Shown: positions 17,785 to 42,717, numbered from the stretch's first letter. The stretch is 64,000 nt of DNA from an uncultured bacterium (GCA_937903605.1 CALCZC010000025.1:67275-131274), one strand, 5' to 3'. Notes: a model not told the origin generated them from the sequence alone. Numbers and translations are program-made.

Positions 17785-17861
17785 GATATTGAATATTAAA
17801 TATTGAATATTATTTTTATTTACGACTAATATCCAGTATTCAATATTCAGTATTTATTTTT

Positions 17862-18101
17862 ATGTCTTTTTTTGTCTACATTCTAAAGTGTTCCGACAAA
17901 ACTCTCTACACCGGTATTACCACCGACCTGAAACGCCGTATTGACGAACATAATTTTTCTGATTTGGGCGCCAAATACACCCGCGCGCGCCGTCCAGTCA
18001 AACTTGTTTGGTCAAAAAAGTTCAAAACCAGATCTTCCGCCGCGCGGATGGAGTATAAAATCAAACAGTTAAGCAGAGAAGAAAAATTAAAATTACTCTA
18101 G
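17862..18101 (+). CDS. Small GIY-YIG nuclease (UPF0213/YhbQ-like)
   Basis: FVYIL..LYTGIT.DL.RR..EH, GAKYTR.RRPV and E.KIK motifs. Confidence 0.92.
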   Translation: MSFFVYILKCSDKTLYTGITTDLKRRIDEHNFSDLGAKYTRARRPVKLVWSKKFKTRSSAARMEYKIKQLSREEKLKLL

Positions 18102-18103
18102 AT

Positions 18104-18302: not shown

Positions 18303-18331
18303 TTGAAGAAAATGTAAAAAAAGAGTAAAAT
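18303..18331 (+). promoter_or_regulatory. Module promoter TTGAAG-17-TAAAAT
   Basis: Same architecture recurs at 19366, 23799, 24748 and 28121. Confidence 0.7.
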
Positions 18332-18364
18332 ATATTTGTTTTATATTAAAACATTATTAAATAT

Positions 18365-19204
18365 ATGGAGGAAAAAAATAAATTAGTGGTTTTGTTTGAA
18401 GATAATCCAGTACGTCGTTTATGGGATGAAAAAGAGGAGAAGTGGTATTTCAGCGTAGTGGATATTATTCAAATTTTAACTGGTAGTGTAGATGCGCGCG
18501 ATTATTGGTTTAAGATGAAAAAACGTGTTAAAAGTGACGATGGAATTGAGTTGTCGACAATTTGTCGTCAACTGAAATTAACAGCCAAAGATGGTAAAAA
18601 ATACTTGACAGATACGGCCAATATTGAAGGATTATTTCGTATTATTCAATCTGTCCCATCACCCAAAGCCGAACCAATAAAGCTTTGGCTAGCGCGTGTT
18701 GGTTATGAGCGCATGCAAGAAACTGTTGATCCGGAAAAATCTATCAATCGCGGTAGAAAAAATTGGCAAAGAATGGGGCGAAGTCAAAAATGGATTCAAC
18801 AAAGAATGATGGGGCAAGAAATAAGAAATAAATTGACGGATTATTGGAAAGATAATGAAGTAAAAGAAAAAGATGAATATGCGATTTTGACAAATATTAT
18901 TCATCAAGAATGGAGTGATTTGACGGTTAAAGAACACAAAAATTTAAAAGGTTTGAAAGTTCAAAATTTACGTGATCATATGACAGATGCGGAATTGGTT
19001 TTTACCGCATTGGCAGAATTATCCACGCGACAAATAGCTGAAACGATGCGAACCAAAGGTTTGGAAGAAAATAAAATTCCGGCACAAAAAGGCGGACGAA
19101 TTGCCAAAAATGCGCGATTGGAATTGGAAGAAAAAACGGGGAAAAAAGTGGTGACAAAAAACAATTTTCTCAAAAACATAGAAAACAGAAAAAGAATAAA
19201 ATAA
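18365..19204 (+). CDS. BRO-N domain protein (phage antirepressor-like)
   Basis: VRRLWD..EEKWYFSVVD, KLTAKDGK, RIIQSVPSPKAEPIKLWLA and NLRDHMT motifs. Confidence 0.88.
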   Translation: MEEKNKLVVLFEDNPVRRLWDEKEEKWYFSVVDIIQILTGSVDARDYWFKMKKRVKSDDGIELSTICRQLKLTAKDGKKYLTDTANIEGLFRIIQSVPSPKAEPIKLWLARVGYERMQETVDPEKSINRGRKNWQRMGRSQKWIQQRMMGQEIRNKLTDYWKDNEVKEKDEYAILTNIIHQEWSDLTVKEHKNLKGLKVQNLRDHMTDAELVFTALAELSTRQIAETMRTKGLEENKIPAQKGGRIAKNARLELEEKTGKKVVTKNNFLKNIENRKRIK

Positions 19205-19224
19205 AAAAACCAAACAATAATTTC

Positions 19225-19252
19225 AACACTTCAGCCTATAGGTTGAAGTGTT
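19225..19252. repeat. Module-boundary palindrome, copy 1
   Basis: AACACTTCAGCCTATAGGTTGAAGTGTT. Confidence 0.9.
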
Positions 19253-19365
19253 TTTATTTTCTTTGTTTTAGCAAAAATAAGTTGATTTATTTATTAGTAT
19301 AAATTTTAGTATTGCATTCGTATTATTAGTAAAATTAGTATATTGGTATCAATCAAAAAATTCAG

Positions 19366-19394
19366 TTGAATTTTTTAGGGAAAGAGAGTAAAAT
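19366..19394 (+). promoter_or_regulatory. Module promoter TTGAAT-17-TAAAAT
   Basis: 17-nt spacer ending GGGAAAGAGAG. Confidence 0.7.
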
Positions 19395-19418
19395 AAAGGC
19401 ATTAGTTGTTATAAAATT

Positions 19419-20402
19419 ATGAAGAAAAAAGTAAAAAACAATCAAGTTATTATTTATCAAGCCAAAAATGGAGCGATTGAGCTTCGGGGTGATAATTCCC
19501 GTGAGACTTTTTGGGCCACACAAGCGCAAATAGCGCGGTTGTTTGATGTTACTCCTCAAAATGTGACATTGCACTTAAATAATATCTATAAAGACAAAGA
19601 GCTTGAAATGTCGACAACTTGTAAGGAATCCTTACAAGTTCAAATCGAAGGGAAAAGAGAAATTAAAAGAACCGTTAAGTTTTATAACCTTGATGCGATT
19701 ATTGCTGTCGGCTATCGTATAAATTCCGTCTTGGGAACAAATTTTCGTATTTGGGCGACAAAGACTCTTCGTGGATATATTATCAACGGTTTTGTTATAA
19801 ATCGTAAACAAATATCGGTTCATTATTCGCAATTTTTGGAAGCTGTAGAAAATATCAAACAAATATTACCTGGAGCCGGAAATATAGATCAAAATAGTGT
19901 TTTGGAATTGATTTCCGCTTTTGCCAATACTTGGTTATCTCTGGAAGCTTATGATAAAGATAAAATGGTCAGCACCGGAAATACCAAAAAATCAGTAGTG
20001 ATAACCGCGGACAAATTAAAAAAAGCGTTGGGTGATTTCAAAAACGAGTTATTGAAGAAAGGCGAAGCAACGGAAATTTTCGGACAAGAAAAACACAGAG
20101 ATGCCGTAGGAAGTATTGTCGGTAATGTGATGCAATCGTTTGGCGGTAAATCGCTTTACGCAACCGTAGAAGAAAAAGCGGCCCATCTTCTTTATTTTTT
20201 GGTTAAAGATCATCCGTTTACAGACGGAAACAAACGAAGCGGTGCTTTCGCTTTTGTTTGGTTTTTGAAAAAAGCCGGTTTGCTTGATTCTTCCAAAATC
20301 ACTCCGCCCGCGCTCACGGCTATAACGCTTTTTATCGCTGAAAGCAATCCAAAACAAAAAGATAAGATGATTAAATTAGTTTTACAATTATTAAAAAAAT
20401 GA
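19419..20402 (+). CDS. RhuM-family domain fused to Fic/Doc domain
   Basis: N-terminal W.TQ.QIA.LF and YNLDAIIAVGYRINS; C-terminal HPFTDGNKRSG Fic motif. Confidence 0.92.
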   Translation: MKKKVKNNQVIIYQAKNGAIELRGDNSRETFWATQAQIARLFDVTPQNVTLHLNNIYKDKELEMSTTCKESLQVQIEGKREIKRTVKFYNLDAIIAVGYRINSVLGTNFRIWATKTLRGYIINGFVINRKQISVHYSQFLEAVENIKQILPGAGNIDQNSVLELISAFANTWLSLEAYDKDKMVSTGNTKKSVVITADKLKKALGDFKNELLKKGEATEIFGQEKHRDAVGSIVGNVMQSFGGKSLYATVEEKAAHLLYFLVKDHPFTDGNKRSGAFAFVWFLKKAGLLDSSKITPPALTAITLFIAESNPKQKDKMIKLVLQLLKK

Positions 20403-20409
20403 TATCCTG

Positions 20410-20527
20410 TGTCATCCTGAACGCAATGAAGGATCTGTAAATAAAACAGGACTTTGAATCAAATAATTTATTTTTTTGCAGACCTGCCTGCCGGCAGGCA
20501 GGTTCTTCGCTTGCGCTCAGAATGACA
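20410..20527. repeat. Inverted pair of TGTCAT REPs; second copy carries a CCTGCCTGCCGGCAGGCAGG insert
   Basis: 20410-20437 TGTCATCCTGAACGCAATGAAGGATCTG; reverse copy at 20479-20527 with the insert at 20483-20502. Confidence 0.85.
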
Positions 20528-20552
20528 AATTATACTAAATTTAGCCAAATTT

Positions 20553-20580
20553 AACACTTCACCCTATAGGTTGAAGTGTT
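20553..20580. repeat. Module-boundary palindrome, copy 2
   Basis: AACACTTCACCCTATAGGTTGAAGTGTT. Confidence 0.9.
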
Positions 20581-20589
20581 TGTTTTATA

Positions 20590-20618
20590 TTGACTTATAA
20601 CCCTGATCGTGTTATATT
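20590..20618 (+). promoter_or_regulatory. Sigma70 promoter with extended -10
   Basis: TTGACT-17-TATATT, TG immediately upstream of the -10. Confidence 0.7.
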
Positions 20619-20646
20619 TTAAATAGGAGACATTCAAAATTTATTA

Positions 20647-20868
20647 GCGCGAAATGCGCCGTATAATTCTGGTGAAAACCAAGGCAACCGGGGAAATCTG
20701 CCGGAGTGCCGTATGAATTATATCGACTAACCAAAAAGGCAATTGTCATTCCCGTACCCGTCAAGCGAGTATAAACTACAGCGGGAATCCAGTGGTCAAA
20801 GGCGGTTGGGAGATTTCATTCTAAGAGATAGTAATATCTTTTTGATGAAATCTCTTAGCCGCTTTTTT
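20647..20868 (+). ncRNA. Candidate structured leader or sRNA
   Basis: Three-way junction at 20662-20722, REP at 20744-20792, and a long hairpin plus U-tract at 20802-20868. Confidence 0.45.
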
Positions 20869-20912
20869 GTTTTTCAAAAAGGTCGAATCCGTAAAAACGG
20901 GAGAAAAACAAA

Positions 20913-21617
20913 ATGACTAATTTTAATTTTTTAACATCAATCTTTATGACACACAAAATACCTGAAGGATTAACCAAATGCAAAGTTTGCGGTTGGTATG
21001 ACGGACAAACGACCAGAGGTCAGTTCAATAACGGCGGGAGTTCCACTGAAAAAATCACCATATCCTGTCTTTGCAAAGGTTTGGTTTGTAAAAAATGCGG
21101 TCAAACCAAAATACCGAGACCTTGTTCCAATTCTTATGATGAAAAATCAAACACATTCGGACATTGGCCGTATTTCATCGGCATGATGACTACCTGTCCG
21201 GATTGCAGAAGGTTGGAAAAGATAATTGAAAAACCTTTTATCGGTTTTATCATTGATTGGAAAAAAATGTATTATGAAATAAATCTGGTCAATCCTACTG
21301 ATAGAAAAATTTCCAGCGTCTTGGCATATACAGGCGCGTTTTGCGGGGATACAGATGGCTTGATAGAGACAAGCAGGGTTACACGAGAAAAAGGGGAGAT
21401 GTTACCAAATTCATCAATTCTTTTGGAAAAAAGCGATGTTGACGGTTTGGAATTCGTGATTTGGTTTCATCTGGACATTTATTTTGAAGGAGAAGAAAAA
21501 CCCCTGAAAGTTTGGTTTAATATACCAAAAAATGGTTGGAATTATAAAGACAATGAAGAAATGCTTCCGGTATTGAATAAAAAAGGGCAAATAATAGAGT
21601 TAAAAGAGAGAAATTGA
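20913..21617 (+). CDS. Hypothetical protein with Cys-rich (zinc-binding) N-terminus
   Basis: CKVC, CLC, CKKC and CPDC; alternative start at 20946. Confidence 0.75.
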   Translation: MTNFNFLTSIFMTHKIPEGLTKCKVCGWYDGQTTRGQFNNGGSSTEKITISCLCKGLVCKKCGQTKIPRPCSNSYDEKSNTFGHWPYFIGMMTTCPDCRRLEKIIEKPFIGFIIDWKKMYYEINLVNPTDRKISSVLAYTGAFCGDTDGLIETSRVTREKGEMLPNSSILLEKSDVDGLEFVIWFHLDIYFEGEEKPLKVWFNIPKNGWNYKDNEEMLPVLNKKGQIIELKERN

Positions 21618-21619
21618 GA

Positions 21620-21648
21620 TTGTATTTTTCTTCCAAAAATGCTAAACT
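21620..21648 (+). promoter_or_regulatory. Promoter of HD gene copy 1
   Basis: TTGTAT-17-TAAACT with TG extension; homologous to 27170-27198. Confidence 0.6.
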
Positions 21649-21656
21649 TTATTCAG

Positions 21657-21684
21657 TGTCATTCCTGCGAAGGCAGGAATCCAG
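21657..21684 (+). repeat. TGTCAT REP, uninterrupted
   Basis: TGTCATTCCTGCGAAGGCAGGAATCCAG. Confidence 0.9.
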
Positions 21685-21754
21685 TGGTTAATTCGAATTT
21701 CTCGGTTATTCGGGGCATTTGGATATTAATTTGTAGTATTCGGATTATATCTAT

Positions 21755-22342
21755 ATGAAATTAACACCAAAAATATTAAAAGCTATTAATTTTGCTAGCA
21801 AAAAGCATAAAAAGGGGGTTAGAAAAGGGGACAAGGGGTTGCCTTATATTAGCCACTGTTTTGCAACTGCCTGGATCTTGAACAGCTTTACCAAAGATGA
21901 AGATGTGATTGTCGCCGGTTTGCTTCACGATGTTATCGAAGATGTCTTGGGGCCCAAGGGTTACAAAATACTTCAAGAAAAATTCGGTCAGCGCGTGGTT
22001 GATATTGTGAAGGGTGTTACCGAAGACAAAGATCCCAACAAAAAAGAAGATGAAAAGCCATGGATTGAAAGAAAACAAGATTATCTTGATCATCTCAAAA
22101 AAGATAGCAAGGAATCCATGATGGTAAGTACAGCGGATAAAATACACAATTTGCAGTCCATGCGCGATGCTTATCGCGAACAAGGGGAAAAATTATGGAA
22201 GAATTTCAACTCTCCGGCGGATAAAAAGCTTTGGTTTTATGAAGAGGTTTATAAGATAGTAAAGGGAAAATTGAGGAATAAAATTGTAGAAGAGTTAAAT
22301 AAACAAATTAAAGGAGCAAAATATGAATTTCATTTATATTAA
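21755..22342 (+). CDS. HD-domain small alarmone hydrolase (Mesh1/SpoT-HD-like), copy 1
   Basis: H....RK, PYISH, GLLHDVIED and ADKIHN motifs. Confidence 0.88.
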   Translation: MKLTPKILKAINFASKKHKKGVRKGDKGLPYISHCFATAWILNSFTKDEDVIVAGLLHDVIEDVLGPKGYKILQEKFGQRVVDIVKGVTEDKDPNKKEDEKPWIERKQDYLDHLKKDSKESMMVSTADKIHNLQSMRDAYREQGEKLWKNFNSPADKKLWFYEEVYKIVKGKLRNKIVEELNKQIKGAKYEFHLY

Positions 22343-23057
22343 AAAAAGTTCAGCTATTGCCGGAATTATAGCTTTAGCTTTTATTTTTGCCGGAGTCGGT
22401 TATTTTTTCAAAGATAAAATACAAAAACAAAATTTTGATAATTATATTAATGAAAATAATGCAGAAAATTATTTTGAAGTCGTTAAAAAAGCCGACATGT
22501 GTTTGATGATGGAGCCAAAAGATATTGATTGTTTTATTTATAAAGCCAATGCTTTGGCAAAAATGGCTTATATTGACGAGGCTCTGAAAGTGTTAACCGA
22601 TGCAAAAAAATATGTAAATAAATGGTCTGATGAGGGTGAAGATTTAATACACTTATATTATTCTATCAGTGACAGAGGAAAAACGGACAAATGGAATCTA
22701 ATTTTAGATCAAGATATTCAGTGGAAAGGAAAAATTGGTATAGGGTTGGAACAGATTGACGGTATAAAATTTTATTTTATCGGAGATGATGGAAAAACAT
22801 CGCGAACAGCCGGTTGGCAAGATTGGTTTTGGGTTTTACCAACATCGACAGAGGAAATTGTAATAGAGAAAGATGGATGGGTAGAATATATGCTCAAAAG
22901 TTTTGGAAATATTGATATAAATACCGTAGATTTTATTAGTGATACGTTTTTGATAACAGGTAAATATACTAATTTTGATTGTGGTTTCTATGGAGATTAT
23001 ATGTGTGTACCAATAGTTGCTGTTGAGAAAATTGAAAGAATAAAAAATAACAAATAA
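22323..23057 (+). CDS. Membrane-anchored hypothetical protein with a TPR-like helix pair
   Basis: N-terminal TM helix; P..IDCFIYKANALAKM...EAL pattern. Confidence 0.65.
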   Translation: MNFIYIKKSSAIAGIIALAFIFAGVGYFFKDKIQKQNFDNYINENNAENYFEVVKKADMCLMMEPKDIDCFIYKANALAKMAYIDEALKVLTDAKKYVNKWSDEGEDLIHLYYSISDRGKTDKWNLILDQDIQWKGKIGIGLEQIDGIKFYFIGDDGKTSRTAGWQDWFWVLPTSTEEIVIEKDGWVEYMLKSFGNIDINTVDFISDTFLITGKYTNFDCGFYGDYMCVPIVAVEKIERIKNNK

Positions 23058-23059
23058 AT

Positions 23060-23428
23060 ATGAAAATAGTTTATTCAAAATTCATTTCCGGTGCTTCTGC
23101 TTCGCGATTTAAAGTCAAAGGAGATAAAAAAAGTGTAAAAAATTGGAGAAATAATGTGATTGAACAAACCAAAGACGGGATAGGTATTATCAACAAAGAG
23201 TGTAGAATGAAAGTTATCTTTAAATTTCATTCAAGCAGATATCCAACAGATTTTCCATATGGTCCGGATTTAGATAACCACATAAAAAATTTATGGGATG
23301 GGCTTAATGAAACCATTTTTAAAAACGCACCAGGGCATGATAGTTGTGTAAAAATACTTCACGCGAGTAAACATAAAGTTGAAAAAGAAAAAGAAGCCGG
23401 AGTAAAAATAGAAATATCTTATATATAA
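23060..23428 (+). CDS. RusA-like Holliday junction resolvase
   Basis: PDLDNHIKNLWDGL...HDSCV resembles the RusA D-x-DN-x2-K-x3-D motif. Confidence 0.75.
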   Translation: MKIVYSKFISGASASRFKVKGDKKSVKNWRNNVIEQTKDGIGIINKECRMKVIFKFHSSRYPTDFPYGPDLDNHIKNLWDGLNETIFKNAPGHDSCVKILHASKHKVEKEKEAGVKIEISYI

Positions 23429-23474
23429 AATAAGAATATTTTCTATATTATTAAAAGCTAAAATAAGCCGGTTT

Positions 23475-23527
23475 TGTCATCCCCGCGAATCCGCCTTCGC
23501 CAGTTGGCGAATGGCGGAGGGGATCCG
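23475..23527 (+). repeat. TGTCAT REP with nested TCCGCC..GGCGGA insert
   Basis: TGTCATCCCCGCGAA-[TCCGCCTTCGCCAGTTGGCGAATGGCGGA]-GGGGATCC. Confidence 0.8.
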
Positions 23528-23649
23528 GTGGTTAATTTTTGTAATCTTTCAATTTCGTAATTTCGCCTTTTTTTGTATGCTTAGCTTGTCCGGCGTAACT
23601 TTAGTGAAGTCGGATTATATTGTCCGTAAAAATAATATTCTGTATTTCA

Positions 23650-23675
23650 AACACTTCAGCCTAGGTTGAAGTGTT
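23650..23675. repeat. Module-boundary palindrome, copy 3
   Basis: AACACTTCAGCCTAGGTTGAAGTGTT, inside a 64-bp direct repeat (23619-23682). Confidence 0.9.
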
Positions 23676-23711
23676 TTAATTTGCTTTGTTTTAGTAAAAT
23701 GTAGAACACAT

Positions 23712-23781
23712 TGTCATTCCTGCGAAAGCAGGAATCCAGCGGTCGTCTCAATTTTCCTATATTCCTGCTTTCGCAGGAATT
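23712..23781. repeat. Inverted TGTCAT REP pair, second copy decayed
   Basis: TGTCATTCCTGCGAAAGCAGGAATCCAG and ATTCCTGCTTTCGCAGGAAT. Confidence 0.8.
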
Positions 23782-23798
23782 ATGTTCTAAATCTTTAT

Positions 23799-23827
23799 TT
23801 GAATTTTATAATCAAAAAGAGTAAAAT
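23799..23827 (+). promoter_or_regulatory. Module promoter TTGAAT-17-TAAAAT
   Basis: The -10 ends 6 nt before the ATG, so the transcript is likely leaderless. Confidence 0.65.
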
Positions 23828-23833
23828 TCCATC

Positions 23834-24667
23834 ATGAAAAAACTTTATATTTCCATCATATTTCTACTATTTCTATCCGGTTGTACTTCCGAGGTTACGC
23901 AAAATAGTAAAGTAGAAATCAAAACCGAAAATCAAACCGTCACTGCGGTTGTTTCTTCTACCACAAATATAAAAATAAACGATGATTTTGATGATATAAA
24001 AACAGAAATTTTTGTTACTACCAATACCCCTACAAATTCAGAAAAAACTTTTTTGGTGACACGAGTTATTGACGGCGACACTATCGAGATAGAAGGCGGG
24101 CAAAAAGTGCGCTATATCGGTATAGACACTCCGGAAACTGTAGATCCGCGCAAACCCGTGCAATGTTTTGGCAAAGAAGCTTCCGCAAAAAACAAAGAAT
24201 TGGTGGAAGGCAAAAAAGTGCGTTTGGAAAAAGATGTTACAGACACGGATAAATACGGGCGCTTGTTGCGATACGTTTACATCGGCGATATTTTTGTAAA
24301 TCTGGAATTGGTCAAACAAGGTTACGCCTCCTCATATTCTTATCCGCCGGATATCAAATTTCAAAATATATTTTTGCAAGCTCAACAAGAAGCGCAAGCC
24401 AAGGATCTAGGTTTTTGGTCAGCTTGTGAAGAAAATAATATCCCCGAAATATCCACTCCTTCCATAAATACCACAACAAACAACAACAGCCCGACGGATT
24501 GTAAAATAAAAGGAAATATCAGTTCAAAAGAAGAAAAAATTTATCATTCTATAGGGTGTGATAGTTACGATCTTACAAAAATAGATGAGGCTAGGGGAGA
24601 GAGATGGTTTTGCACGGAAGAGGAAGCGGTGAACGCGGGGTGGAGAAAAGCATTAAATTGTCCGTAA
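23834..24667 (+). CDS. Thermonuclease (SNase) lipoprotein with C-terminal Cys/His domain
   Basis: Lipobox LSGC; VIDGDT, VRYIGIDTPE and DKYGRLLRY motifs; C-terminal CKIKGNIS..YH...C..Y..ERWFC. Confidence 0.92.
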   Translation: MKKLYISIIFLLFLSGCTSEVTQNSKVEIKTENQTVTAVVSSTTNIKINDDFDDIKTEIFVTTNTPTNSEKTFLVTRVIDGDTIEIEGGQKVRYIGIDTPETVDPRKPVQCFGKEASAKNKELVEGKKVRLEKDVTDTDKYGRLLRYVYIGDIFVNLELVKQGYASSYSYPPDIKFQNIFLQAQQEAQAKDLGFWSACEENNIPEISTPSINTTTNNNSPTDCKIKGNISSKEEKIYHSIGCDSYDLTKIDEARGERWFCTEEEAVNAGWRKALNCP

Positions 24668-24687
24668 AAATAATATTCTGTATTTTA

Positions 24688-24713
24688 AACACTTCACCCT
24701 AGGGTGAAGTGTT
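24688..24713. repeat. Module-boundary palindrome, copy 4
   Basis: AACACTTCACCCTAGGGTGAAGTGTT, a perfect palindrome inside direct repeat 24657-24720. Confidence 0.9.
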
Positions 24714-24747
24714 TTAATTTTGTTTTATATTAGCAAAAATTTGTTTC

Positions 24748-24776
24748 TTGAGTTTTTTAGGGAAAAGGAGTAAAAT
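24748..24776 (+). promoter_or_regulatory. Module promoter TTGAGT-17-TAAAAT
   Basis: Spacer TTTTTAGGGAAAAGGAG is nearly identical to that at 19372. Confidence 0.7.
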
Positions 24777-24802
24777 AAATGCATCTTATTTAACAAAAAT
24801 TT

Positions 24803-25465
24803 ATGAAATTAAAGGAGGTTCCCGTCGTCGATAGACCGCGGGAAAAGTTGGAAAAATATGGGGTAAATAGGCTCAGTGACAGCGAGCTTATGGCTATTTT
24901 GATTCGCACCGGGATTGTTGGTAAAAATGTTGTGGAGCTTTCCAAACAAATTTTGAAAAAAATTAAAAAACTCGGTTTGGAAAAAATGGAAATGAAGGAT
25001 TTATTGGAAATAAAAGGTTTGGGAAAAACCAAGGCCGGGCAGATATTGGCAAGCTTGGAAATCGGTCGCCGTTTTCTTCAAAACAAAAAATCCGAATTAA
25101 TACTTTCTCCGCAAGATGTTTGGAACGAAATGAAAGACTTGCGCGACAGTAAAAAAGAACATTTTGTTATTTTTTATCTAGACACGCAAAATCAAATTAT
25201 TAAAAGAGAAATTATTTCCGTCGGCACGTTAAACGAAAGTCTGATTCATCCGCGAGAAGTTTTTGAACCGGCTGTCAGATATTCCACGGCGCAAATAATC
25301 ATGGCGCACAACCATCCGTCCGGGAATTTGGAACCGTCGCCTGAAGATGTCGCAGTTTCAAGACGTTTGATAGACGCCGGAAATTTATTGGGGATTGAAG
25401 TTTTGGATCATATTATCATAACAAAGGACGGTTTTAAAAGCATGAAAGAATTAAAAATGTTATAG
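24803..25465 (+). CDS. radC: RadC (JAB domain) protein
   Basis: RPREKL, LSDSELMAI, HhH, HPREVF, HNHPSG..PS..D and LDHII motifs. Confidence 0.95.
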   Translation: MKLKEVPVVDRPREKLEKYGVNRLSDSELMAILIRTGIVGKNVVELSKQILKKIKKLGLEKMEMKDLLEIKGLGKTKAGQILASLEIGRRFLQNKKSELILSPQDVWNEMKDLRDSKKEHFVIFYLDTQNQIIKREIISVGTLNESLIHPREVFEPAVRYSTAQIIMAHNHPSGNLEPSPEDVAVSRRLIDAGNLLGIEVLDHIIITKDGFKSMKELKML

Positions 25466-25468
25466 GTT

Positions 25469-26089
25469 ATGTCAAATCACTATACAGAAAAATTAAAAGC
25501 GGCTTTAAAAAAACGAGTTTATGTTTACATAGACGCGGCTAATTTGGAACGCTCGGTACAGGATATGTGGGTAAACTCCAAAGATATTCCGGATAATTTA
25601 AAAGAAAATAAAGCGGAAGAGTTGCACTATCGCGTAGATTATCAAAAATTTAAAGCTTATTTTGACAAAATTTCCGATTTAAAAGAAATAAAATTTTATT
25701 CCGCCGATTTTAATAATGAAAAGCACAGTAAGTTTTTATGGTTTTTAAGTAAAATATTAAAATTTAAATTAGGAACAAAACCTTTGAAAGAATATACTGA
25801 CCACACTCCTGAAACTCCGCACCGAAAAGCAAATTTTGACGTAGAACTGGCGGTAGATGCTACTTATCATTTGAATAAATATGACACTTTGGTTTTGTTT
25901 TCAGGAGATTGTGATTTTGAATACCTGATCAAATTTTTGAAGGGTCATGGTAAAGTGGTTATTGTTTTTTCACGGGTCGGACATGTGGCCAAAGAACTTC
26001 CGCCAGCAAGCAGTTATTATTTTGACATAGTGGACTTTAGACAGGAATTGTTAAAAATAGAAACTAAAACGCAAAAAATCCCGCGATAA
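25469..26089 (+). CDS. NYN-domain (LabA/DUF88, PIN-like) ribonuclease
   Basis: YIDAAN, KANFDVELAVD and SGDCDF acidic motifs. Confidence 0.9.
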   Translation: MSNHYTEKLKAALKKRVYVYIDAANLERSVQDMWVNSKDIPDNLKENKAEELHYRVDYQKFKAYFDKISDLKEIKFYSADFNNEKHSKFLWFLSKILKFKLGTKPLKEYTDHTPETPHRKANFDVELAVDATYHLNKYDTLVLFSGDCDFEYLIKFLKGHGKVVIVFSRVGHVAKELPPASSYYFDIVDFRQELLKIETKTQKIPR

Positions 26090-26135
26090 AGCGGGATTCT
26101 GCAGTTGATTACAAGTGATACTGCTATCACCTGTA
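26073..26135 (-). ncRNA. Candidate ~60-nt sRNA convergent on the NYN 3' end
   Basis: Minus-strand TTGACA(26169-26164)-17-TATAGT(26146-26141), an internal hairpin, and terminator AATCCCGC/GCGGGATT + U6 overlapping the NYN stop. Confidence 0.55.
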
Positions 26136-26220
26136 ATTCAACTATACATTAATTTTACGATTTTGTCAATGTTATCCACAACGGAAAAAGTACCTAAGAT
26201 TGTTGTAATACTAAATAAAC

Positions 26221-26350
26221 AAAAAACCCAATCGGTTAGATTAGGCGCTTTGTTGAAGTAGCGTCTTAAAAAGTGGTTATCTGCGGCTTAAGTCCCGAGT
26301 TCCTCGGGGGAACACCACAGCGCTCTCTAAGCTATTATTGCATACTTCAA
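26221..26350 (-). ncRNA. Candidate ~130-nt rod-shaped sRNA
   Basis: Minus-strand TTGGCG-17-(TGg)TATATT promoter at 26383-26355, four stacked stems, terminator CCTAATC/GATTGGG + U6. Confidence 0.55.
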
Positions 26351-26406
26351 GATTAATATACCACAAAACCCCTTTTTCGCCAATATCAGCTTATCCACAG
26401 GTTTTT

Positions 26407-26433
26407 TGTCATCCTGAACTTGATTCAGGATCT
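26407..26433 (+). repeat. TGTCAT REP, variant stem
   Basis: TGTCATCCTGAACTTGATTCAGGATCT. Confidence 0.8.
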
Positions 26434-26473
26434 CCCTTTAAGTCTAATTTCGCCTGTTCAAGGCGGATTTTTT

Positions 26474-26501
26474 AACACTTCAGCCTGTAGGTTGAAGTGT
26501 T
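26474..26501. repeat. Module-boundary palindrome, copy 5
   Basis: AACACTTCAGCCTGTAGGTTGAAGTGTT. Confidence 0.9.
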
Positions 26502-26533
26502 TTTGTTTGGGTTGAATTAGCGAAAATTTATTT

Positions 26534-26562
26534 TTGACAAAATCACCAAAATATACTATACT
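26534..26562 (+). promoter_or_regulatory. Sigma70 promoter upstream of the riboswitch
   Basis: TTGACA-17-TATACT. Confidence 0.75.
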
Positions 26563-26590
26563 ACTAATAGTTACAATCTAAAATAATTAT

Positions 26591-26719
26591 TTATCAAGAG
26601 CGCAGGTAGTTTCTTCGCCGAGGCGGAGAACTTAGGGATCTAGCCCAAAATCTGCCGGCAACCTCTGTGGCTGACTGCCAAAGAAAGGTGCCAATTCTAG
26701 CCCGAATAGGGAAAGATGA
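26591..26719 (+). promoter_or_regulatory. SAM-I (S-box) riboswitch aptamer, variant with an extra hairpin in P2
   Basis: TTATCAAGAG, AGGGA..GCCC, CGGCAACC, AAGGTGCCAATTC and GAAAGATGA in canonical order; pseudoknot CTAG/CTAG. Confidence 0.88.
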
Positions 26720-26750
26720 TCGTCGATTTTTTGTTTCTTGAGCAAAAAGC

Positions 26751-26776
26751 ATCTTTCCCACCCGGGAAAGATTTTT
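26751..26776 (+). terminator. Riboswitch expression-platform terminator
   Basis: ATCTTTCCC-ACCC-GGGAAAGAT-TTTT. Its 5' arm (CATCTTTCCC) is also complementary to the aptamer 3' strand GGGAAAGATG (26709-26718), forming an antiterminator. Confidence 0.82.
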
Positions 26777-26795
26777 AATTTTTAATAATGAATAT

Positions 26796-27173
26796 ATGAT
26801 AACTGAAAATTTTAATACTTATACTTTTAAATTTTTATCAGGGGTTAAAAATAAAATGACGGAGTTTACCGAAGAACCGGATCTTATTGTTTATGAATCA
26901 ATAGGATTAGCCACGGCTGGCAGTGTAGAACATGCAATTATTCTTGCTTTACAACATAAAGAAGGTTTTTTAAAAGAGGCAGTAGGGTATAGAGTCAGAG
27001 AAAATAATGATATTATTAAAATTCTCAGCAAAGCCACGGGTAAAGATTATGTCGGAGTGGAGTTTTATAAGTTAAAAAGAAAAAATCAAGAAGAATTAAG
27101 TGGTATAGGTAAGTTTTTTGCGGACAATTTGAACAAGAATGTCCTGGAAGATCAAAAAAAGATGAAAAATTGA
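26796..27173 (+). CDS. Hypothetical protein under SAM-riboswitch control
   Basis: 125-aa ORF directly after the terminator; no recognisable family. Confidence 0.7.
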   Translation: MITENFNTYTFKFLSGVKNKMTEFTEEPDLIVYESIGLATAGSVEHAIILALQHKEGFLKEAVGYRVRENNDIIKILSKATGKDYVGVEFYKLKRKNQEELSGIGKFFADNLNKNVLEDQKKMKN

Positions 27174-27198
27174 AGTTTTCTTAAAAAAATGCTAAACT
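27170..27198 (+). promoter_or_regulatory. Promoter of HD gene copy 2
   Basis: TTGAAG-17-TAAACT with TG extension. Confidence 0.6.
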
Positions 27199-27352
27199 TT
27201 AATGGCAATATTCGTATAAATTTTAGTATAGCACTAGTATAATTAGTATCAATTATTCGTATCTATGAAATTAATATTAAATTAGTATAAATTTTAGTAT
27301 TACATTCGTATCATTAGTACAATTAGTATATTAGTATCAATTATTTGTATCT

Positions 27353-27931
27353 ATGAAACTAACTCCCAAAATACAAAAAGCCATCAATTACGCCAGTCGT
27401 TTGCATGCCAAACAGATAAGAAAAGGGGATAAAGACCTGCCTTATGTCAGCCATTGCTTCACCGCGGCTTGGATTCTCAATGAATTTACCAAAGACGAAG
27501 ATATTATCGTGGCCGGATTGCTTCACGATGTACTGGAAGATGTTCCGGGTTATGGTTACGAAAGGATGAAAAAAGATTTTGGCGCGCGAGTGGCGAAAAT
27601 AGTCGCCGGTGTTACCGAAGATAAAGATCCCAATAAAAAAGAGAAAGAGAAGCCGTGGATTGAAAGAAAACAGAAATATCTCGAGCATCTCAAAAAAGAT
27701 AGCCGGGAATCCATGATGGTAAGCGCAGCGGATAAAATACACAATTTGCAGTCCATGCGCGATGCTTATTGCGAACAAGGGGAGAAATTGTGGAAGCATT
27801 TCAATGCTACAAAAGAGGAATCTCTTTGGTTTTATGAGCAAGTTTATAAGATTATTAGGGGGAAATTGAGGAATAAAATTGTGGGGGAATTGGGGAAACA
27901 ATTGGCAGGGGCAAAAAAGGAATTTAAATAA
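27353..27931 (+). CDS. HD-domain small alarmone hydrolase, copy 2
   Basis: H..Q.RK, PYVSH, GLLHDVLED and ADKIHN motifs; close paralog of 21755-22342. Confidence 0.88.
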   Translation: MKLTPKIQKAINYASRLHAKQIRKGDKDLPYVSHCFTAAWILNEFTKDEDIIVAGLLHDVLEDVPGYGYERMKKDFGARVAKIVAGVTEDKDPNKKEKEKPWIERKQKYLEHLKKDSRESMMVSAADKIHNLQSMRDAYCEQGEKLWKHFNATKEESLWFYEQVYKIIRGKLRNKIVGELGKQLAGAKKEFK

Positions 27932-27936
27932 TTTTT

Positions 27937-27964
27937 AACACTTCAGCCTGTAGGTTGAAGTGTT
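27937..27964. repeat. Module-boundary palindrome, copy 6
   Basis: AACACTTCAGCCTGTAGGTTGAAGTGTT, identical to copy 5. Confidence 0.9.
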
Positions 27965-27988
27965 TGTTTTGTGTAATTTTGGCCATTT

Positions 27989-28070
27989 TGTCATTCCTGT
28001 GGGCCAAAGGCCTCCCTTTGGGAAAGGCAGAGATCTAGGCACTTGTCATCCCCGCGCAGGCGGGGATCCA
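27989..28070 (+). repeat. Two tandem TGTCAT REPs; first has a GGCCAAAGGCCTCCCTTTGGGA insert
   Basis: 27989-28038 and 28044-28070 (TGTCATCCCCGCGCAGGCGGGGATCCA). Confidence 0.85.
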
Positions 28071-28120
28071 ATGACTAATTTTTCGCAATTTTTCGTATTT
28101 TTATAATTCAAAAATTGGTA

Positions 28121-28149
28121 TTGTAAAAAAGGGGGAAAGAGAGTAAAAT
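28121..28149 (+). promoter_or_regulatory. Module promoter TTGTAA-17-TAAAAT driving the R-M island
   Basis: Spacer ends GGGAAAGAGAG, as at 19378-19388. Confidence 0.7.
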
Positions 28150-28175: not shown

Positions 28176-29105
28176 ATGAAAAGTTATTATCGTATAATGC
28201 TTGGCAAGGGTAGTGTTTATGCCAAAGAAGCAAGGTTAGAAAATTTTATGGGCGCCGGATGGCTTGGTGATATTGATTTAACAAATGAATTACCAGAAAG
28301 TCGAGTTGAATTCAATAAGAAATTCATACCTGTTTATTTAAAAAAACATCCTGATGCAAAGAAAATGTCAGCGGCCCTTGCTTGTGGTATGTTATACACG
28401 ATCGCAAAAGGTATTGTTATTGGTGATATTGTTTTATGTCCGGATGGGTCAGGTAATTATTATTTCGGAGAAGTCATTGGTGATTATCAATATGTGTCGG
28501 GAGTAAACTTACCGCACCGTCGTGCTGTGAAATGGTATTCCAAAATTATTCCCAGAGAAGAAATGAGTCAAGCTTTAAAATATTCCACTGGCGCCATTGG
28601 TACAGTTAGCAATATAACCGATCATGCTTCTGAATTAGAAAAATTGATATCAGGTAATGTTGAAAGTCCGATTGTTGTGACCGACGAGTCAATTGAAGAC
28701 CCAAGTGTATTTATGTTAGAGAAACATCTAGAGGATTTTTTGGTACAAAATTGGAACAATACTGAATTGGGTAAGAATTATAATATTTATGAAGAAGATG
28801 GTGAAATAGTGGGGCAACAATATCCTAGCGATACTGGTCCAATAGATATTTTGGCAATTAGTAAAGATAAAAAAACACTTTTGGTAGTTGAGTTAAAAAA
28901 AGGACGCGCAAGTGATGTGGTGGTCGGCCAAATTCAAAGGTACATGGGTTATGTAAAAGACGAATTAGCAGAAAAAAATCAAGAAATTAAAGGGGTTATA
29001 ATTGCTTTTGAAGATGATATTAAAATTCGCCGTGCTTTATCGGTTGCAAATAACATCGATTTTTATACTTATAAAATTGATTTTAAACTTGAAAAAAATA
29101 AATAA
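28176..29105 (+). CDS. NucS/DUF91-type PD-(D/E)XK endonuclease with an extra N-terminal domain
   Basis: LEKHLEDFL, GPIDILA, VVELKK and VGQIQRYMG motifs. Confidence 0.82.
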   Translation: MKSYYRIMLGKGSVYAKEARLENFMGAGWLGDIDLTNELPESRVEFNKKFIPVYLKKHPDAKKMSAALACGMLYTIAKGIVIGDIVLCPDGSGNYYFGEVIGDYQYVSGVNLPHRRAVKWYSKIIPREEMSQALKYSTGAIGTVSNITDHASELEKLISGNVESPIVVTDESIEDPSVFMLEKHLEDFLVQNWNNTELGKNYNIYEEDGEIVGQQYPSDTGPIDILAISKDKKTLLVVELKKGRASDVVVGQIQRYMGYVKDELAEKNQEIKGVIIAFEDDIKIRRALSVANNIDFYTYKIDFKLEKNK

Positions 29106-29107
29106 TT

Positions 29108-30682
29108 ATGACTAATTTTAATACTTCAAAAGAACAAGAACGTGCCGAGCTTCATCGTGCTATTTGGCAAATTGCTAATGATCTAAGGGGAAGTGTAGAT
29201 GGTTGGGATTTCAAACAATATGTTTTGGGAATTTTGTTTTATAGATTTATTGGTGAAAATCTTTCTAATTATATCAATAAACAACAGAGAAAAGTTAAAG
29301 GGTTTGAAAATTTTGAATATTCAAATTTGAGCGATAAAGAAGCAGAATTGGGTAAAAAAGAAATTGTGTTGGCAAAGGGTTTCTATATTCTTCCAAGTGA
29401 GCTTTTTGTAAATGTTCGTAAAAATGCTAAAAACAATGCAAATTTAAACGAAACTCTTTCAAGAGTTTTTAGTAATATTGAAAATTCTGCAAAAGGTTTT
29501 GATAGTGAGGATGATATAAAAGGGTTATTTGCTGACCTTGATGTCAATTCTCCAAAACTTGGAAATACAGTTGAAAAACGTAATCAAAAATTAGTAAAAC
29601 TTTTAGATGCTATTGGAGATCTTCAATTAGGAAATTACTCTGATAATACTATCGATGCTTTCGGTGATGCTTATGAGTTTTTAATGACCATGTATGCTTC
29701 AAATGCTGGTAAATCTGGAGGTGAATTTTATACACCACAAGAAGTTAGTGAATTACTTGCAAAAATTACGACTGTGGGTAAAAAAGAGGTAAACAAAGTT
29801 TATGATCCATGTTGTGGTTCAGGATCGCTTCTTTTGAAATTTGCCAAAGTTCTTGGTAAAGAAAATGTCCGGCTTGGTTTTTTTGGTCAAGAAATAAATC
29901 TTACCACCTATAATTTGTGTCGTATCAACATGTTTTTACACGATATCAACTATAATCATTTTGATATTGAGCTCGGTGACACACTAACTGATCCCAAACA
30001 TTGGGATGACGAACCTTTTGATGCTATAGTTTCTAACCCGCCTTATTCAATTAATTGGGAAGGGGACGCTAATCCGCTTTTAATAAACGACCCTCGTTTT
30101 TCGCCTGCTGGAGTACTTGCTCCAAAGAGTAAAGCTGATTTGGCTTTCACCATGCACATGCTTTCGTGGCTTTCTACCAGCGGAACGGCGGCGATTGTTG
30201 AATTCCCTGGAGTTCTTTATCGTGGTGGAGCTGAAGCAAAAATCCGCAAATATTTGATTGATAACAATTACGTTGATGCTGTAATACAACTTCCACTAGA
30301 TCTTTTCTTTGGTACAACCATTGCTACTTGTGTTATCGTTTTAAAGAAGAGTAAAAAAGACAATAAGACTTTATTTATCGATGCTTCCGCTGAATTTGTT
30401 CGGGGTGGTAATAAAAATAAATTAAACGAAGAAAATCGTAAAAAGATCCTGAATGCTTTTATAGAAAGAAAAGATATAGAACATTTTGCAAAAATTATAG
30501 ATAACAAAGCTATTGCAGAAAATGATTACAATCTAGCAGTTTCTAGTTATGTGGAGCAAAAAGACACTAGAGAAGCAGTGGACATAAAAGAACTTAATAA
30601 AGAAATTGAGAGAATCGTAAAAAGACAAAGTGAATTAAGGTTGGCAATTGATGAGATTGTGAGGGAGATTGAGGGTAATTAA
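29108..30682 (+). CDS. hsdM: Type I R-M methyltransferase subunit
   Basis: GEFYTP, DPCCGSG (motif I) and NPPY (motif IV). Confidence 0.97.
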   Translation: MTNFNTSKEQERAELHRAIWQIANDLRGSVDGWDFKQYVLGILFYRFIGENLSNYINKQQRKVKGFENFEYSNLSDKEAELGKKEIVLAKGFYILPSELFVNVRKNAKNNANLNETLSRVFSNIENSAKGFDSEDDIKGLFADLDVNSPKLGNTVEKRNQKLVKLLDAIGDLQLGNYSDNTIDAFGDAYEFLMTMYASNAGKSGGEFYTPQEVSELLAKITTVGKKEVNKVYDPCCGSGSLLLKFAKVLGKENVRLGFFGQEINLTTYNLCRINMFLHDINYNHFDIELGDTLTDPKHWDDEPFDAIVSNPPYSINWEGDANPLLINDPRFSPAGVLAPKSKADLAFTMHMLSWLSTSGTAAIVEFPGVLYRGGAEAKIRKYLIDNNYVDAVIQLPLDLFFGTTIATCVIVLKKSKKDNKTLFIDASAEFVRGGNKNKLNEENRKKILNAFIERKDIEHFAKIIDNKAIAENDYNLAVSSYVEQKDTREAVDIKELNKEIERIVKRQSELRLAIDEIVREIEGN

Positions 30683-30688
30683 ATTAAT

Positions 30689-32890
30689 ATGAATAAATTA
30701 AAAGTTAAATTAGAAAATTGTTACGGAATAAAAAAGCTTGAACACGAGTTTGATTTTTCTAATTTTAAAACTTTTGTTATCTATGCACCCAACGGCGTAA
30801 TGAAGACATCATTTGCAAAAACCCTTAGCGATATTGCAAAAGGAGAAAAACCCTGTGATCAAATAGATGATACTTTAACACCAATTTTTAATTTTTTAAT
30901 TGATGATTCTGAAAATCAAATCCAATCAGAAGAAATATGTGTTATAGAGTCATACAACAAAAAAGCGTTTGATTCTGAAGATAAGATTCTTACGCTTCTA
31001 GCAGACGACGAGACCAAAAAGGAATATTTGGCAATATTTAACGAAATTGAATCACTTAAAAAAGCTTCTCTTCCTGGATTAAAAAAAATATCAGGCAGTA
31101 GTAACTACGAATCTGAAATTACAGAAGCATTTTCTAATCTTGATAAGAAAAATATTTTTGAAATTTTTGAGGCCGTTTTAAATGACATTGAAGCATCGAA
31201 AGATTCATTTGAATTTAAATATAACGATGTTTTTGATAAAGGTGGAAAAGTTAAAAAATTTCTGGCAGATAATTTTGCATTATTAAAAGAGTACATTGAA
31301 AAATACAATGATCTGATTAGTAAGTCTACTTTTTTTGCAAAAAATGCCAACCATATTTTTGGAACAACGGAAGCAAAAATTCTTGGTAAGTCGCTTGAGG
31401 GCGATGAATATTTTACTGCTGGGCATAAATTAGTATTAAAATCACATGGGGATGTATCTGCTAAAAATAAATTATCAGAAATAATTGATGAGGAAATTGA
31501 AAAAGTTTTTAATGATAAAGACCTGAAAGATATTTTTGAAAAAATCGATAATTTGCTCAATACTAATAAAGAACTTCAAGCATTTAAGAAGATTATTGAA
31601 AGAGACAATTCAATTTTATTGAGATTAAATAATTACGATGCTTTTAGAAGAGAGGTGTGGTTTAGTTTTTTAAAACAAATTGAGACAAGCATAAAATCAT
31701 TAGTTGAATTATATAATCAGAAAAAGGTTGATTTAGAAAGGATTATACAAAAAGCAAAGGACAGTCAGTCACAATGGGAAAGTGCTATTAAAGAATTTGA
31801 AAACAGATTTGTTAATAATCCATTTACTCTTGAAATTCAAAATAAGGCGGACGCTGTATTAAACGAAAAGACACCAGTAATTGATTTTAAATTTCAAGGA
31901 AAAGATATCGAAAGAAACAATTTGATAGAAAATGTATTGAGCCAAGGAGAGAGACGAGCTTTTTATATTTTAAATGTTATTTTTGAGATTAAATCTCGGC
32001 AGCTACAAAACAAAAAAACATTATTTATTATTGATGACATAGCGGACTCGTTTGATTACAAAAATAAATATGCAATTATTGAATATTTAAATGATTTATC
32101 CAAAGAAGATAATTTCTATTCAATAATTTTAACGCACAACTTTGACTTTTTTAGGACACTTCAATCAAGAATCTTGCAAGATAATAAGTGGAACTATTCT
32201 TTTATAGCAGAAAAACTAACAGATGAAATTAAACTAATTAAAGCAGGTAGTAAAAATGTTACTGACCCATTTACTAACTGGAAAGCAGGTCTTAATAACA
32301 ACAAAAAACATTTAATTGCTTGTATTCCTTTTGTGCGAAATTTGATTGAATTTAAAGATGGACGAAATGATGGATATAAGCTTCTAACGCACACTCTTCA
32401 TAGAAAATCTTTGGACGAAACTATTAAAGCAACCCCAGATATTTCAATTGCTGATCTACAAGCACCGTTTTCGAGTGTTGTGTCTGGTGTTGCATTTACA
32501 TTTACAGACACAAATGAAAAAATTATTGATGTAATTGAGGAACAGATAGCAGTGATAAAAAATGACAGAAATACCGATTCAATTGTTCTAGAAGATAAAA
32601 TTATTTTTGCTATTGGAATAAGATTGAAAGCAGAAGAATATATGTGGTCGAAGGTTACAAACCAAGATCTAATAAACGGATCGCAAACAGGTAAGCTGTT
32701 TCAGCGATACAAAGATCAATTTAAACAAGATCCGACTCATGTTGAAGCTATAAAAATCTTAGAAAGCGTAAATATAATGACTCCTGAGAACATACACCTG
32801 AACTCTTTTATGTATGAACCAATTTTAGATATAGGCATAGATGAGTTAAAGAGTTTACACGATAAGGTTTGCAATTTAATGAATAATTAG
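30689..32890 (+). CDS. ABC/SMC-like ATPase with long coiled insert (RloC-like architecture)
   Basis: Walker A YAPNGVMKTS, signature LSQGE, Walker B IIDD..DSFD, H-loop LTHN. Confidence 0.8.
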   Translation: MNKLKVKLENCYGIKKLEHEFDFSNFKTFVIYAPNGVMKTSFAKTLSDIAKGEKPCDQIDDTLTPIFNFLIDDSENQIQSEEICVIESYNKKAFDSEDKILTLLADDETKKEYLAIFNEIESLKKASLPGLKKISGSSNYESEITEAFSNLDKKNIFEIFEAVLNDIEASKDSFEFKYNDVFDKGGKVKKFLADNFALLKEYIEKYNDLISKSTFFAKNANHIFGTTEAKILGKSLEGDEYFTAGHKLVLKSHGDVSAKNKLSEIIDEEIEKVFNDKDLKDIFEKIDNLLNTNKELQAFKKIIERDNSILLRLNNYDAFRREVWFSFLKQIETSIKSLVELYNQKKVDLERIIQKAKDSQSQWESAIKEFENRFVNNPFTLEIQNKADAVLNEKTPVIDFKFQGKDIERNNLIENVLSQGERRAFYILNVIFEIKSRQLQNKKTLFIIDDIADSFDYKNKYAIIEYLNDLSKEDNFYSIILTHNFDFFRTLQSRILQDNKWNYSFIAEKLTDEIKLIKAGSKNVTDPFTNWKAGLNNNKKHLIACIPFVRNLIEFKDGRNDGYKLLTHTLHRKSLDETIKATPDISIADLQAPFSSVVSGVAFTFTDTNEKIIDVIEEQIAVIKNDRNTDSIVLEDKIIFAIGIRLKAEEYMWSKVTNQDLINGSQTGKLFQRYKDQFKQDPTHVEAIKILESVNIMTPENIHLNSFMYEPILDIGIDELKSLHDKVCNLMNN

Positions 32891-32891
32891 T

Positions 32892-34010: not shown

Positions 34011-34011
34011 T

Positions 34012-35166: not shown

Positions 35167-35169
35167 ATT

Positions 35170-38226: not shown

Positions 38227-38232
38227 GTTTGT

Positions 38233-38946: not shown

Positions 38947-38953
38947 TAAAAAT

Positions 38954-39592: not shown

Positions 39593-39603
39593 TTTAAATA
39601 AAT

Positions 39604-40946: not shown

Positions 40947-40947
40947 T

Positions 40948-41745: not shown

Positions 41746-41774
41746 ATTTTAGATTGCTGATTTTAGATTTAAAT

Positions 41775-42107: not shown

Positions 42108-42110
42108 TTT

Positions 42111-42713: not shown

Positions 42714-42717
42714 ATTT

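Follow-up and report, generated by a model that had tools for sequence, protein, structure and literature searches.

A palindromic hairpin as a candidate terminator-promoter joint between variable gene modules of a probable Patescibacteria chromosome

We analyzed a 64,000-nt stretch of DNA (here, the window) from an uncultured bacterium (GCA_937903605.1 CALCZC010000025.1:67275-131274), probably a member of Ca. Magasanikbacteria (Patescibacteria), in which co-oriented accessory gene modules at positions 18303 to 28149 are separated by copies of a short palindrome. Our preferred reading, to which we give a probability of roughly 0.55, is that the palindrome heads a terminator-promoter linker serving as a preferred, nonexclusive joint for host recombination, as a chromosomal analogue of the promoter-early-stem-loop elements (PeSLs) of T4-type phages. 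If this is true, a 1-Mb host-dependent bacterium could renew restriction-modification (R-M) and other predicted defense genes without a cassette integrase, and a reusable terminator-promoter joint would let imported modules plug in insulated and expressed. The palindrome itself offers a testable, base-exact substrate. A literature search, with most subscription papers outside its scope, found no description of such a linker repeat for a Patescibacteria chromosome.

The pattern AACACTTCA-N7-10-TGAAGTGTT matched the window at six positions (Table 1) and nowhere else in it, in agreement with a preliminary description of the sequence, and gave no match in 100 dinucleotide shuffles of the window. 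The palindrome measures 26 to 28 bp, starts with AAC, ends with GTT, and consists of 10-bp arms flanking a 6- or 8-bp center. All genes from 17862 to beyond 43000 lie on the + strand, and each copy was found, as described earlier, between a co-oriented module and the next promoter-like site, 5 to 384 bp after the upstream + strand stop codon and 9 to 156 bp before a -35 box recognized by consensus match. The genome containing the window (G000) holds 8 palindromes with exact arms, or 10 if one mismatch per arm is allowed. A linker profile search found 9 copies at E < 0.01, 6 of them inside the array; the three palindromes outside it are at C25:170902, C25:199657, and C28:89894. At L024 (2071-2511 and 2877-3143) and L094 (296-736), the central TAG of the palindrome is the stop codon of the upstream gene. 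An Rfam scan of the window placed no family at any palindrome. A similar core occurs in Streptomyces matches, but a MerR-type operator was rejected for the present copies, which lie outside promoter spacers and vary in spacing by 2 bp.

The content of the island differs in every congener, and the order of its modules varies as well, as the preliminary description had anticipated. The further expectation that breakpoints would coincide with the palindrome held in part: of the one-sided pairs, 10 in number, 4 have their breakpoint at the hairpin and 4 have it 25 to 90 bp beyond, while 2 are ambiguous within paralogous linkers. Locus L110 is 99.8% identical to L095 over 3,878 bp starting at base 1 of the hairpin and unrelated to it upstream, and L105 is 97.4% identical to the window up to 19253, 1 nt past copy 1, and unrelated thereafter. 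A contig of run X3 has the order Cys-rich gene, hybrid HD gene, copy 6 to 27955, copy 4 from 24705, and RadC/NYN, and a contig of run X4 joins an HD gene end to 23644; four of the 18 runs found entered the analysis, and runs with a small share give no evidence. The congeners G002 and G005 switch at the hairpin after the GIY-YIG gene and before DUF3800, and they do so on both sides of two modules. Flanks move together with the module on the same side, left or right. The gap between secA and secD (the names secA, secD, ftsW, rfbB, dnaE, and mgtE were read from translations, not from family matches) holds no palindrome in G000, G002, G003, and G004, one in G001, and two in G005, where they surround five genes, including those for an EcoRI-type methylase and a GmrSD-HNH protein. 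L108 departs from L095 inside secA, and L110, on a separate contig, rejoins L095 at the hairpin; should both points bound a single insertion, they would combine a secA anchor with a short joint at the 28-bp hairpin. Other joints fall at the -10 box, at other repeats, in secA, in the HD paralogues, and behind the S-adenosylmethionine (SAM) leader, and these joints outside the hairpin argue for general recombination. The thermonuclease gene is 97.7% identical to that of G002, compared with 74 to 91% for core genes of the two genomes and 77% locally. No excision joint was among those listed for X1, the possible source run, in which depth was flat near 11, although contigs drop rare variants and could hardly show circles. 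In G003 (L018, L085, and L086), the island from GIY-YIG to the HAD gene lies on the opposite side of the xer gene, so the island moved as a block.

The palindrome is likely to act as an intrinsic terminator, as had been suggested for the hairpin, a prediction based on folds, gene orientation, T runs, and replacement at orthologous spots. The palindromes fold as plain 12-bp stems with at most one internal mismatch, with sense-strand energies between -12.7 and -18.9 kcal/mol (z from -3.4 to -6.8) for the six window copies. Around the 45 two-sided sites among 53 distinct ones, gene orientation was tandem at 34, convergent at 10, and divergent at 1, against a G000 background of 347, 57, and 80, respectively. 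At least 6 T in 8 nt occurred on 38 of 58 sides into which a gene is transcribed versus 12 of 40 other sides, related sites not being independent in this count. At two orthologous spots, the palindrome of G005 is replaced in G000 by an unrelated terminator-like hairpin; a site at dnaE, where a block of ~190 bp is present or absent, was rejected as a terminator swap and excluded from this count.

Homology among the palindrome copies sets in with the first palindrome base and, where the linker is complete, extends via a T-rich tail to the -10 box of a promoter-like site, giving a hairpin-tail-promoter linker of 89 to 99 bp with 66 to 96% identity among 8 copies. The tail, ending in TTAG(C/T)(A/G)AAA and noticed before at several copies, stands to the right of copies 1, 3, 4, and 5; at copy 2 it is on the left and inverted, and at copy 6 it is degenerate. 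Its core, TTTTGGCTAA, is not array specific, because it is overrepresented genome-wide (58 observed versus 18 expected in G000). This core is frequently found in or near promoter-like sites of G000 and is possibly a regulator site. The array holds 5 of the 9 matches in G000 to the promoter-like pattern TTGA-17-GAGTAAAAT. Duplications reach beyond the palindrome, since the 74-bp scar in Table 1 copies the end of the nuclease gene together with it. Repeats of the GTCATTCC type, interleaved in the array, are a separate genome-wide family and resemble by eye the NTS motif of PMC11893778. AT-rich short tandem repeat blocks at 19293-19353, 27210-27341, and 17785-17860, upstream of the RhuM-Fic, HD, and GIY-YIG genes, respectively, are further repeat families of G000.

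The palindrome is a lineage-restricted repeat family. It was present in all 5 congeners, in which a looser pattern counted 3, 5, 1, 1, and 13 copies, and in none of 55 other relatives, with copy numbers ranging from 1 to 13 per genome. A phylum sample of 401 genomes gave matches in G000 and G003 only, and the 50 loci obtained by scanning GTDB as a whole include many chance matches or unrelated cores. Three genomes outside the genus (G166 to G168) have 3 to 5 full-arm palindromes each, some with different centers; recent transfer with cargo to these genomes was unsupported, as near-identity is limited to the 42- to 48-bp site and the RhuM-Fic proteins are 56% identical. The palindrome was also found in 20 metagenomic stretches and in none of the viral contigs scanned, and a phage origin was rejected on the latter count. 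Clustering in the array, which the preliminary description had proposed to look for, was thus seen in the window's genome, yet many palindromes in relatives are solitary and stand beside core genes, so the repeat is not confined to the array. These solitary copies and the pairs that break beyond the hairpin agree in part with what the preliminary description had named as grounds for refuting its reading.

According to the preferred reading, the hairpin would terminate transcription and the linker would supply a promoter, imported DNA would enter through ComEC, and RecA-anchored or short-repeat crossovers would exchange modules; in one case, a long secA anchor at one end and the 28-bp hairpin at the opposite end would fit homology-facilitated illegitimate recombination. 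Cutting at two linkers would yield a module with a promoter of its own and a terminator at its end, so that swaps would stay viable, and viable swaps may keep spreading the same hairpin to new places, as for PeSLs. Of 6 genomes searched for RecA, 5 gave a match; for ComEC, the figure was 4 of 5. Natural competence has been demonstrated for Saccharibacteria (PMC10633639), not for the present group.

Several observations weigh against this reading. Its weakest point is that exact identity between palindrome copies extends over only 10 to 34 bp, and 4 of the 10 one-sided pairs break right at the hairpin despite this. Such lengths are short for RecA. The linker is complete and uninterrupted at only one of the six window copies (copy 4), the others being interrupted by further repeats. 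Some palindromes lie behind another terminator, and a sense T run is missing at some copies, such as those following ftsW and preceding the HAD gene. Conservation of the arms concerns their sequence and not pairing alone, although their invariance is partly set by the search patterns; at arm position 10, 16 of 45 copies (collapsed from 51 sites) have no base pair, and T is never found in 90 half-sites. The centers are common to the neighboring pairs 1-2, 3-4, and 5-6 (6 of 90 arrangements), as a site-specific enzyme would also lead one to expect. Finally, as core genes span 74 to 91%, the nuclease module stands out less than the local value of 77% implies.

Our search for a partner enzyme covered named families, and no tested recombinase family co-occurs with the palindrome except the single Xer; the dedicated trans-acting enzyme that had been postulated thus found no support. 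Two tyrosine recombinases were found in G000, a 270-aa IntI-like protein on C13 and a XerC-like protein; in 4 of 5 congeners, no tyrosine recombinase other than the latter was found. At 29 of 29 family loci (L115 to L144), the single XerC-like gene is accompanied by a 28-bp dif-like site (11-6-11), usually just upstream. In G000, this site (C25:148455-148482; xer gene at C25:147471-148442) is single-copy and located at the GC-skew peak. It is probably the chromosome-dimer resolution site of the family, and a family-wide dif-like site for a single Xer is a by-product of this work; a search with the canonical dif pattern gave noise only. We rejected a dif or pdif identity of the palindrome, given this separate site. 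The genus form of the dif-like site has the outer ACTTC/GAAGT in common with the palindrome, but the correlation fails across genomes: G166 has the palindrome and a family-type dif, whereas the palindrome is absent from all 3 genomes whose dif is of the ACTTC or TCTTC type. For lack of co-occurrence, we also rejected a RAYT/IS200 partner (Y1 transposases in 1 of 5 congeners, and those of G000 associated with other repeats), a hix/res-like serine recombinase site (resolvase PF00239 in 2 of 5 genomes and not found in G000, G001, and G005), and an IS110 target (PF01548 in 1 of 6 genomes). At L014 (G000:C8:1-700), a Y1/RAYT-like gene has its own downstream array of about ten tandem repeats of 60 bp, which bear no relation to the palindrome.

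We regard it as unlikely, though the likeliest of the rival readings, that a site-specific recombinase, be it a novel enzyme or the host Xer with a second target, uses the palindrome as its core site, with cassettes integrating and excising and termination being secondary. It would equally be doubtful to postulate a Patescibacteria-specific cassette system in which the terminator hairpin is the crossover site of a novel enzyme that captures self-promoted defense modules at many places on the chromosome, with no part played by an integron integrase, Xer/dif, a resolvase, or RAYT. The 10-bp arms around 6 or 8 bp do match a simple tyrosine recombinase core, with arms of 9 to 13 bp and a center of 6 to 8 bp (PMC2727003), and base-exact joints, the matching centers of neighboring pairs, the empty, single, and double states between secA and secD, and a weak coupling of left and right alleles at position 10, as if halves were exchanged (17 Watson-Crick pairs versus 11.7 expected, p 0.03), all fit such a site. 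However, the XerC-like protein has its own dif-like site, whose inner TATAA/TTAA motif the palindrome does not have, neither an IntI-like protein in the 5 congeners nor a resolvase in three of the genomes was found, and many joints lie outside the palindrome. A slightly smaller chance is left to a passive role, in which an ordinary terminator is carried along at the ends of modules and takes no part in recombination, the joints being apparent because homology stops where selection stops. Orientation and T-run behavior are what this would predict, ACTTC...GAAGT stems occur in seven unrelated intergenic hairpins of G000, and the palindrome following mgtE was inherited at the same place in four genomes. 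It is at odds with the recurrence of the palindrome's right arm in 8 of the 117 terminator-like hairpins of G000, any other arm occurring in at most 3, with strain pairs of 97 to 99.8% identity that break exactly at the palindrome, and with the way in which left and right flanks follow their modules.

Two further explanations involve nucleases or integrases known from other repeats. We think it improbable that the palindrome is a repeat of the repetitive extragenic palindrome (REP) or SRM type, spread or cut as single-stranded DNA by a REP-associated tyrosine transposase (RAYT) or by the GIY-YIG protein at the island head, with recombinogenic ends arising during transformation. In G002, G005, and G003, the last having no other copy, the palindrome comes directly after the GIY-YIG gene, and in G166 it is 5 kb away from the orthologue; nucleases of the Ssn GIY-YIG type cleave their cognate hairpins and influence transformation (PMC11893778); and the centers in distant genomes vary yet partly retain pairing. 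On the other hand, a GTAG/GGAG/CGTC/TGTC tag was found at 0 of 102 palindrome flank ends, Y1 transposases are rare in the congeners, and copy number is low. Among 151 genomes of the order, 78 have the GIY-YIG orthologue, and at 27 of 27 loci outside the genus the 1.5 kb around it is palindrome-free; the orthologue was not found in the palindrome-bearing G167 and G168, whose genomes may be incomplete; GIY-YIG was therefore rejected as a general cognate nuclease. G000 has 11 GIY-YIG matches, many of them small single-domain genes, alongside NTS-like repeats, and Ssn-type systems in Patescibacteria are possible. Least probable by far is an attC-like site of an integron or of a cluster of attC sites lacking an integron integrase (CALIN), served in trans by the IntI-like recombinase on C13. 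The AAC and GTT ends had led to this analogy, and the recombinase scores 208 bits on TIGR02249 (cutoff, 265) with a divergent promoter-like site of the array type overlapping its gene start. Yet the palindrome falls short of the 57 to 142 nt of an attC (PMC2727003), both R boxes, sought with heptamer patterns, were present in 0 of 102 palindrome orientations, and the modules have promoter-like sites of their own. The enzyme was not found in the five palindrome-bearing congeners and is frequent in palindrome-free relatives. At its own locus (C13:35556-48900), which looks like a separate integron-like locus, the accessory genes downstream are separated by long structured repeats and the palindrome is absent. 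On the co-occurrence and R-box tests, we rejected the attC/CALIN identity as largely refuted; integron-like palindrome arrays thus need not be CALINs.

The cargo of the array (Table 1) largely carries the functions first assigned to it, with family matches for Bro-N, RhuM-Fic, both HD proteins, RusA, thermonuclease (SNase), RadC, and NYN. The 244-aa protein labeled as a tetratricopeptide repeat (TPR) protein gave no TPR family match at E ≤ 0.01, and the SAM element matched the SAM riboswitch model, but below its gathering score. Several module proteins match PADLOC candidate defense models. The SAM riboswitch-like leader (26588-26722; also L015:1581-1801) stands upstream of a 125-aa ORFan here and of MetK in G002 and G005, and the DUF3800-V RNA, found behind the NYN gene here and behind DUF3800 genes in G002, G004, and G005, seems to have changed its partner gene. 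The leader of the Cys-rich/HD module at 20621-20736 (L105:1264-1380) is 88% conserved with an apparently compensated hairpin and no Rfam match, and is a candidate cis-regulatory RNA. Farther downstream, a PD-(D/E)XK gene at 40948-41745 has an in-frame repeat-like insertion at 41300-41380, as read from the translation only.

Table 1. Features of the array and its island (positions in the window; promoter-like sites are consensus matches only)
Feature	Position	Strand	Remarks
Palindrome copy 1, 28 bp	19225..19252	+	Pattern and fold; terminator-like hairpin, module joint
Palindrome copy 2, 28 bp	20553..20580	+	Tail motif on left, inverted, about 20530-20552
Palindrome copy 3, 26 bp	23650..23675	+	In run X4, stands after HD gene end instead
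Palindrome copy 4, 26 bp	24688..24713	+	Heads complete 89-bp linker 24688-24776; fused to copy 6 in X3 contig
Palindrome copy 5, 28 bp	26474..26501	+	Right behind another terminator-like hairpin, 26449-26467
Palindrome copy 6, 28 bp	27937..27964	+	34 identical bp in common with copy 5
T-rich tail ending TTAGCAAAA	24714..24738	+	Related tails 19253-19277, 23676-23699, 26502-26526
Promoter-like TTGA-17-GAGTAAAAT	18303..18331	+	Same family 19366-19394, 23799-23827, 24748-24776, 28121-28149
Promoter-like site of a different type, behind copy 2	20590..20618	+	Second at 26534-26562, behind copy 5
Scar: duplicate of nuclease gene 3' end plus palindrome	23614..23687	+	92% to 24652-24725; also in G005
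GTCATTCC-type (NTS/SRM-like) repeat	21654..21701	+	More at 18102, 20742, 23709, 28041
Small single-domain GIY-YIG gene, island head	17862..18101	+	Palindrome directly 3' in G002, G003, G005
Module: Bro-N protein	18365..19204	+	Family match; PADLOC candidate PDC-S13
Module: RhuM-Fic protein	19419..20402	+	PADLOC candidate PDC-S23; missing at this position in L105
Module: Cys-rich ORFan, HD hydrolase, 244-aa ORFan, RusA-like protein	20913..23428	+	
Module: thermonuclease (SNase)	23834..24667	+	97.7% identical to G002, where neighbors differ
Module: RadC and NYN genes	24803..26089	+	In run X3, stands after HD gene
DUF3800-V RNA motif	26254..26349	-	72.9 bits versus gathering score 37.4
SAM riboswitch-like leader	26588..26722	+	38.8 bits, under gathering score 44.4
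Module: 125-aa ORFan and second HD hydrolase	26796..27931	+	
Remainder of variable island: NucS-like, type I R-M, PrrC-like, AbiU2-like, other accessory genes	28176..43194	+	Palindrome-free

Each of the systems with which the array can be compared shares part of its features. Like integrons and CALINs, it has co-oriented accessory modules that are bounded by a palindrome with AAC/GTT ends and vary in order between strains. Apart from its length and the missing R boxes, the palindrome differs from an attC in forming plain stems, with neither extrahelical bases nor an unpaired central spacer, and the modules, each preceded by a promoter-like site, differ from promoterless cassettes read from the promoter Pc; no IntI co-occurs here. 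As in Xer/dif and pdif systems, a 26- to 28-bp site with inverted arms bounds modules (PMC12907356, PMC1914069), and the largest palindrome cluster lies 50 to 60 kb from the predicted terminus; the dif-like site of G000, however, is another sequence, beside xer. REP/RAYT and Ssn/SRM repeats are likewise extragenic palindromes of 20 to 40 bp between tandem or convergent genes (PMC3733652, PMC11893778), and a small adjacent GIY-YIG gene and interleaved SRM-like repeats add to the likeness to Ssn/SRM. Here, there is no tetranucleotide tag, high copy number, or co-occurring RAYT, and GIY-YIG orthologues outside the genus have no palindrome nearby. In the type VI secretion system immunity arrays of V. 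cholerae, homology-facilitated illegitimate recombination builds gene arrays, with a long homologous anchor and a short joint adding modules without an integrase (PMC5361080), which fits L108 and L110 versus L095, although the short end here falls repeatedly on one stereotyped hairpin.

The closest likeness is to the PeSLs, from which a terminator-promoter linker design is already known. In T4-type phages, a stem-loop and a promoter span about 100 bp, and termination, promoter activity, and mini-circles have been demonstrated, with the recombinase still in question (PMC2839356, PMC4122927). The present linker likewise combines a stem-loop, predicted to be a terminator, with a sigma-70-like promoter sequence in a conserved stretch of about 100 bp, and it too lies in plastic regions among accessory ORFans; in both cases, one linker is found at empty sites and two around inserted genes, and crossovers also occur near the -10 box. 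In contrast to PeSLs, it stands on a bacterial chromosome between core genes, with no viral matches, and its cargo consists of multigene defense-type modules. Its stem is AT-richer and fixed in sequence, its copies are few and often solitary, and its activities are predicted from orientation and T-run statistics only, whereas those of PeSLs have been shown. The linker would thus work like a PeSL without being a member of that group, because it resides on a bacterial chromosome and not in a T4-type phage.

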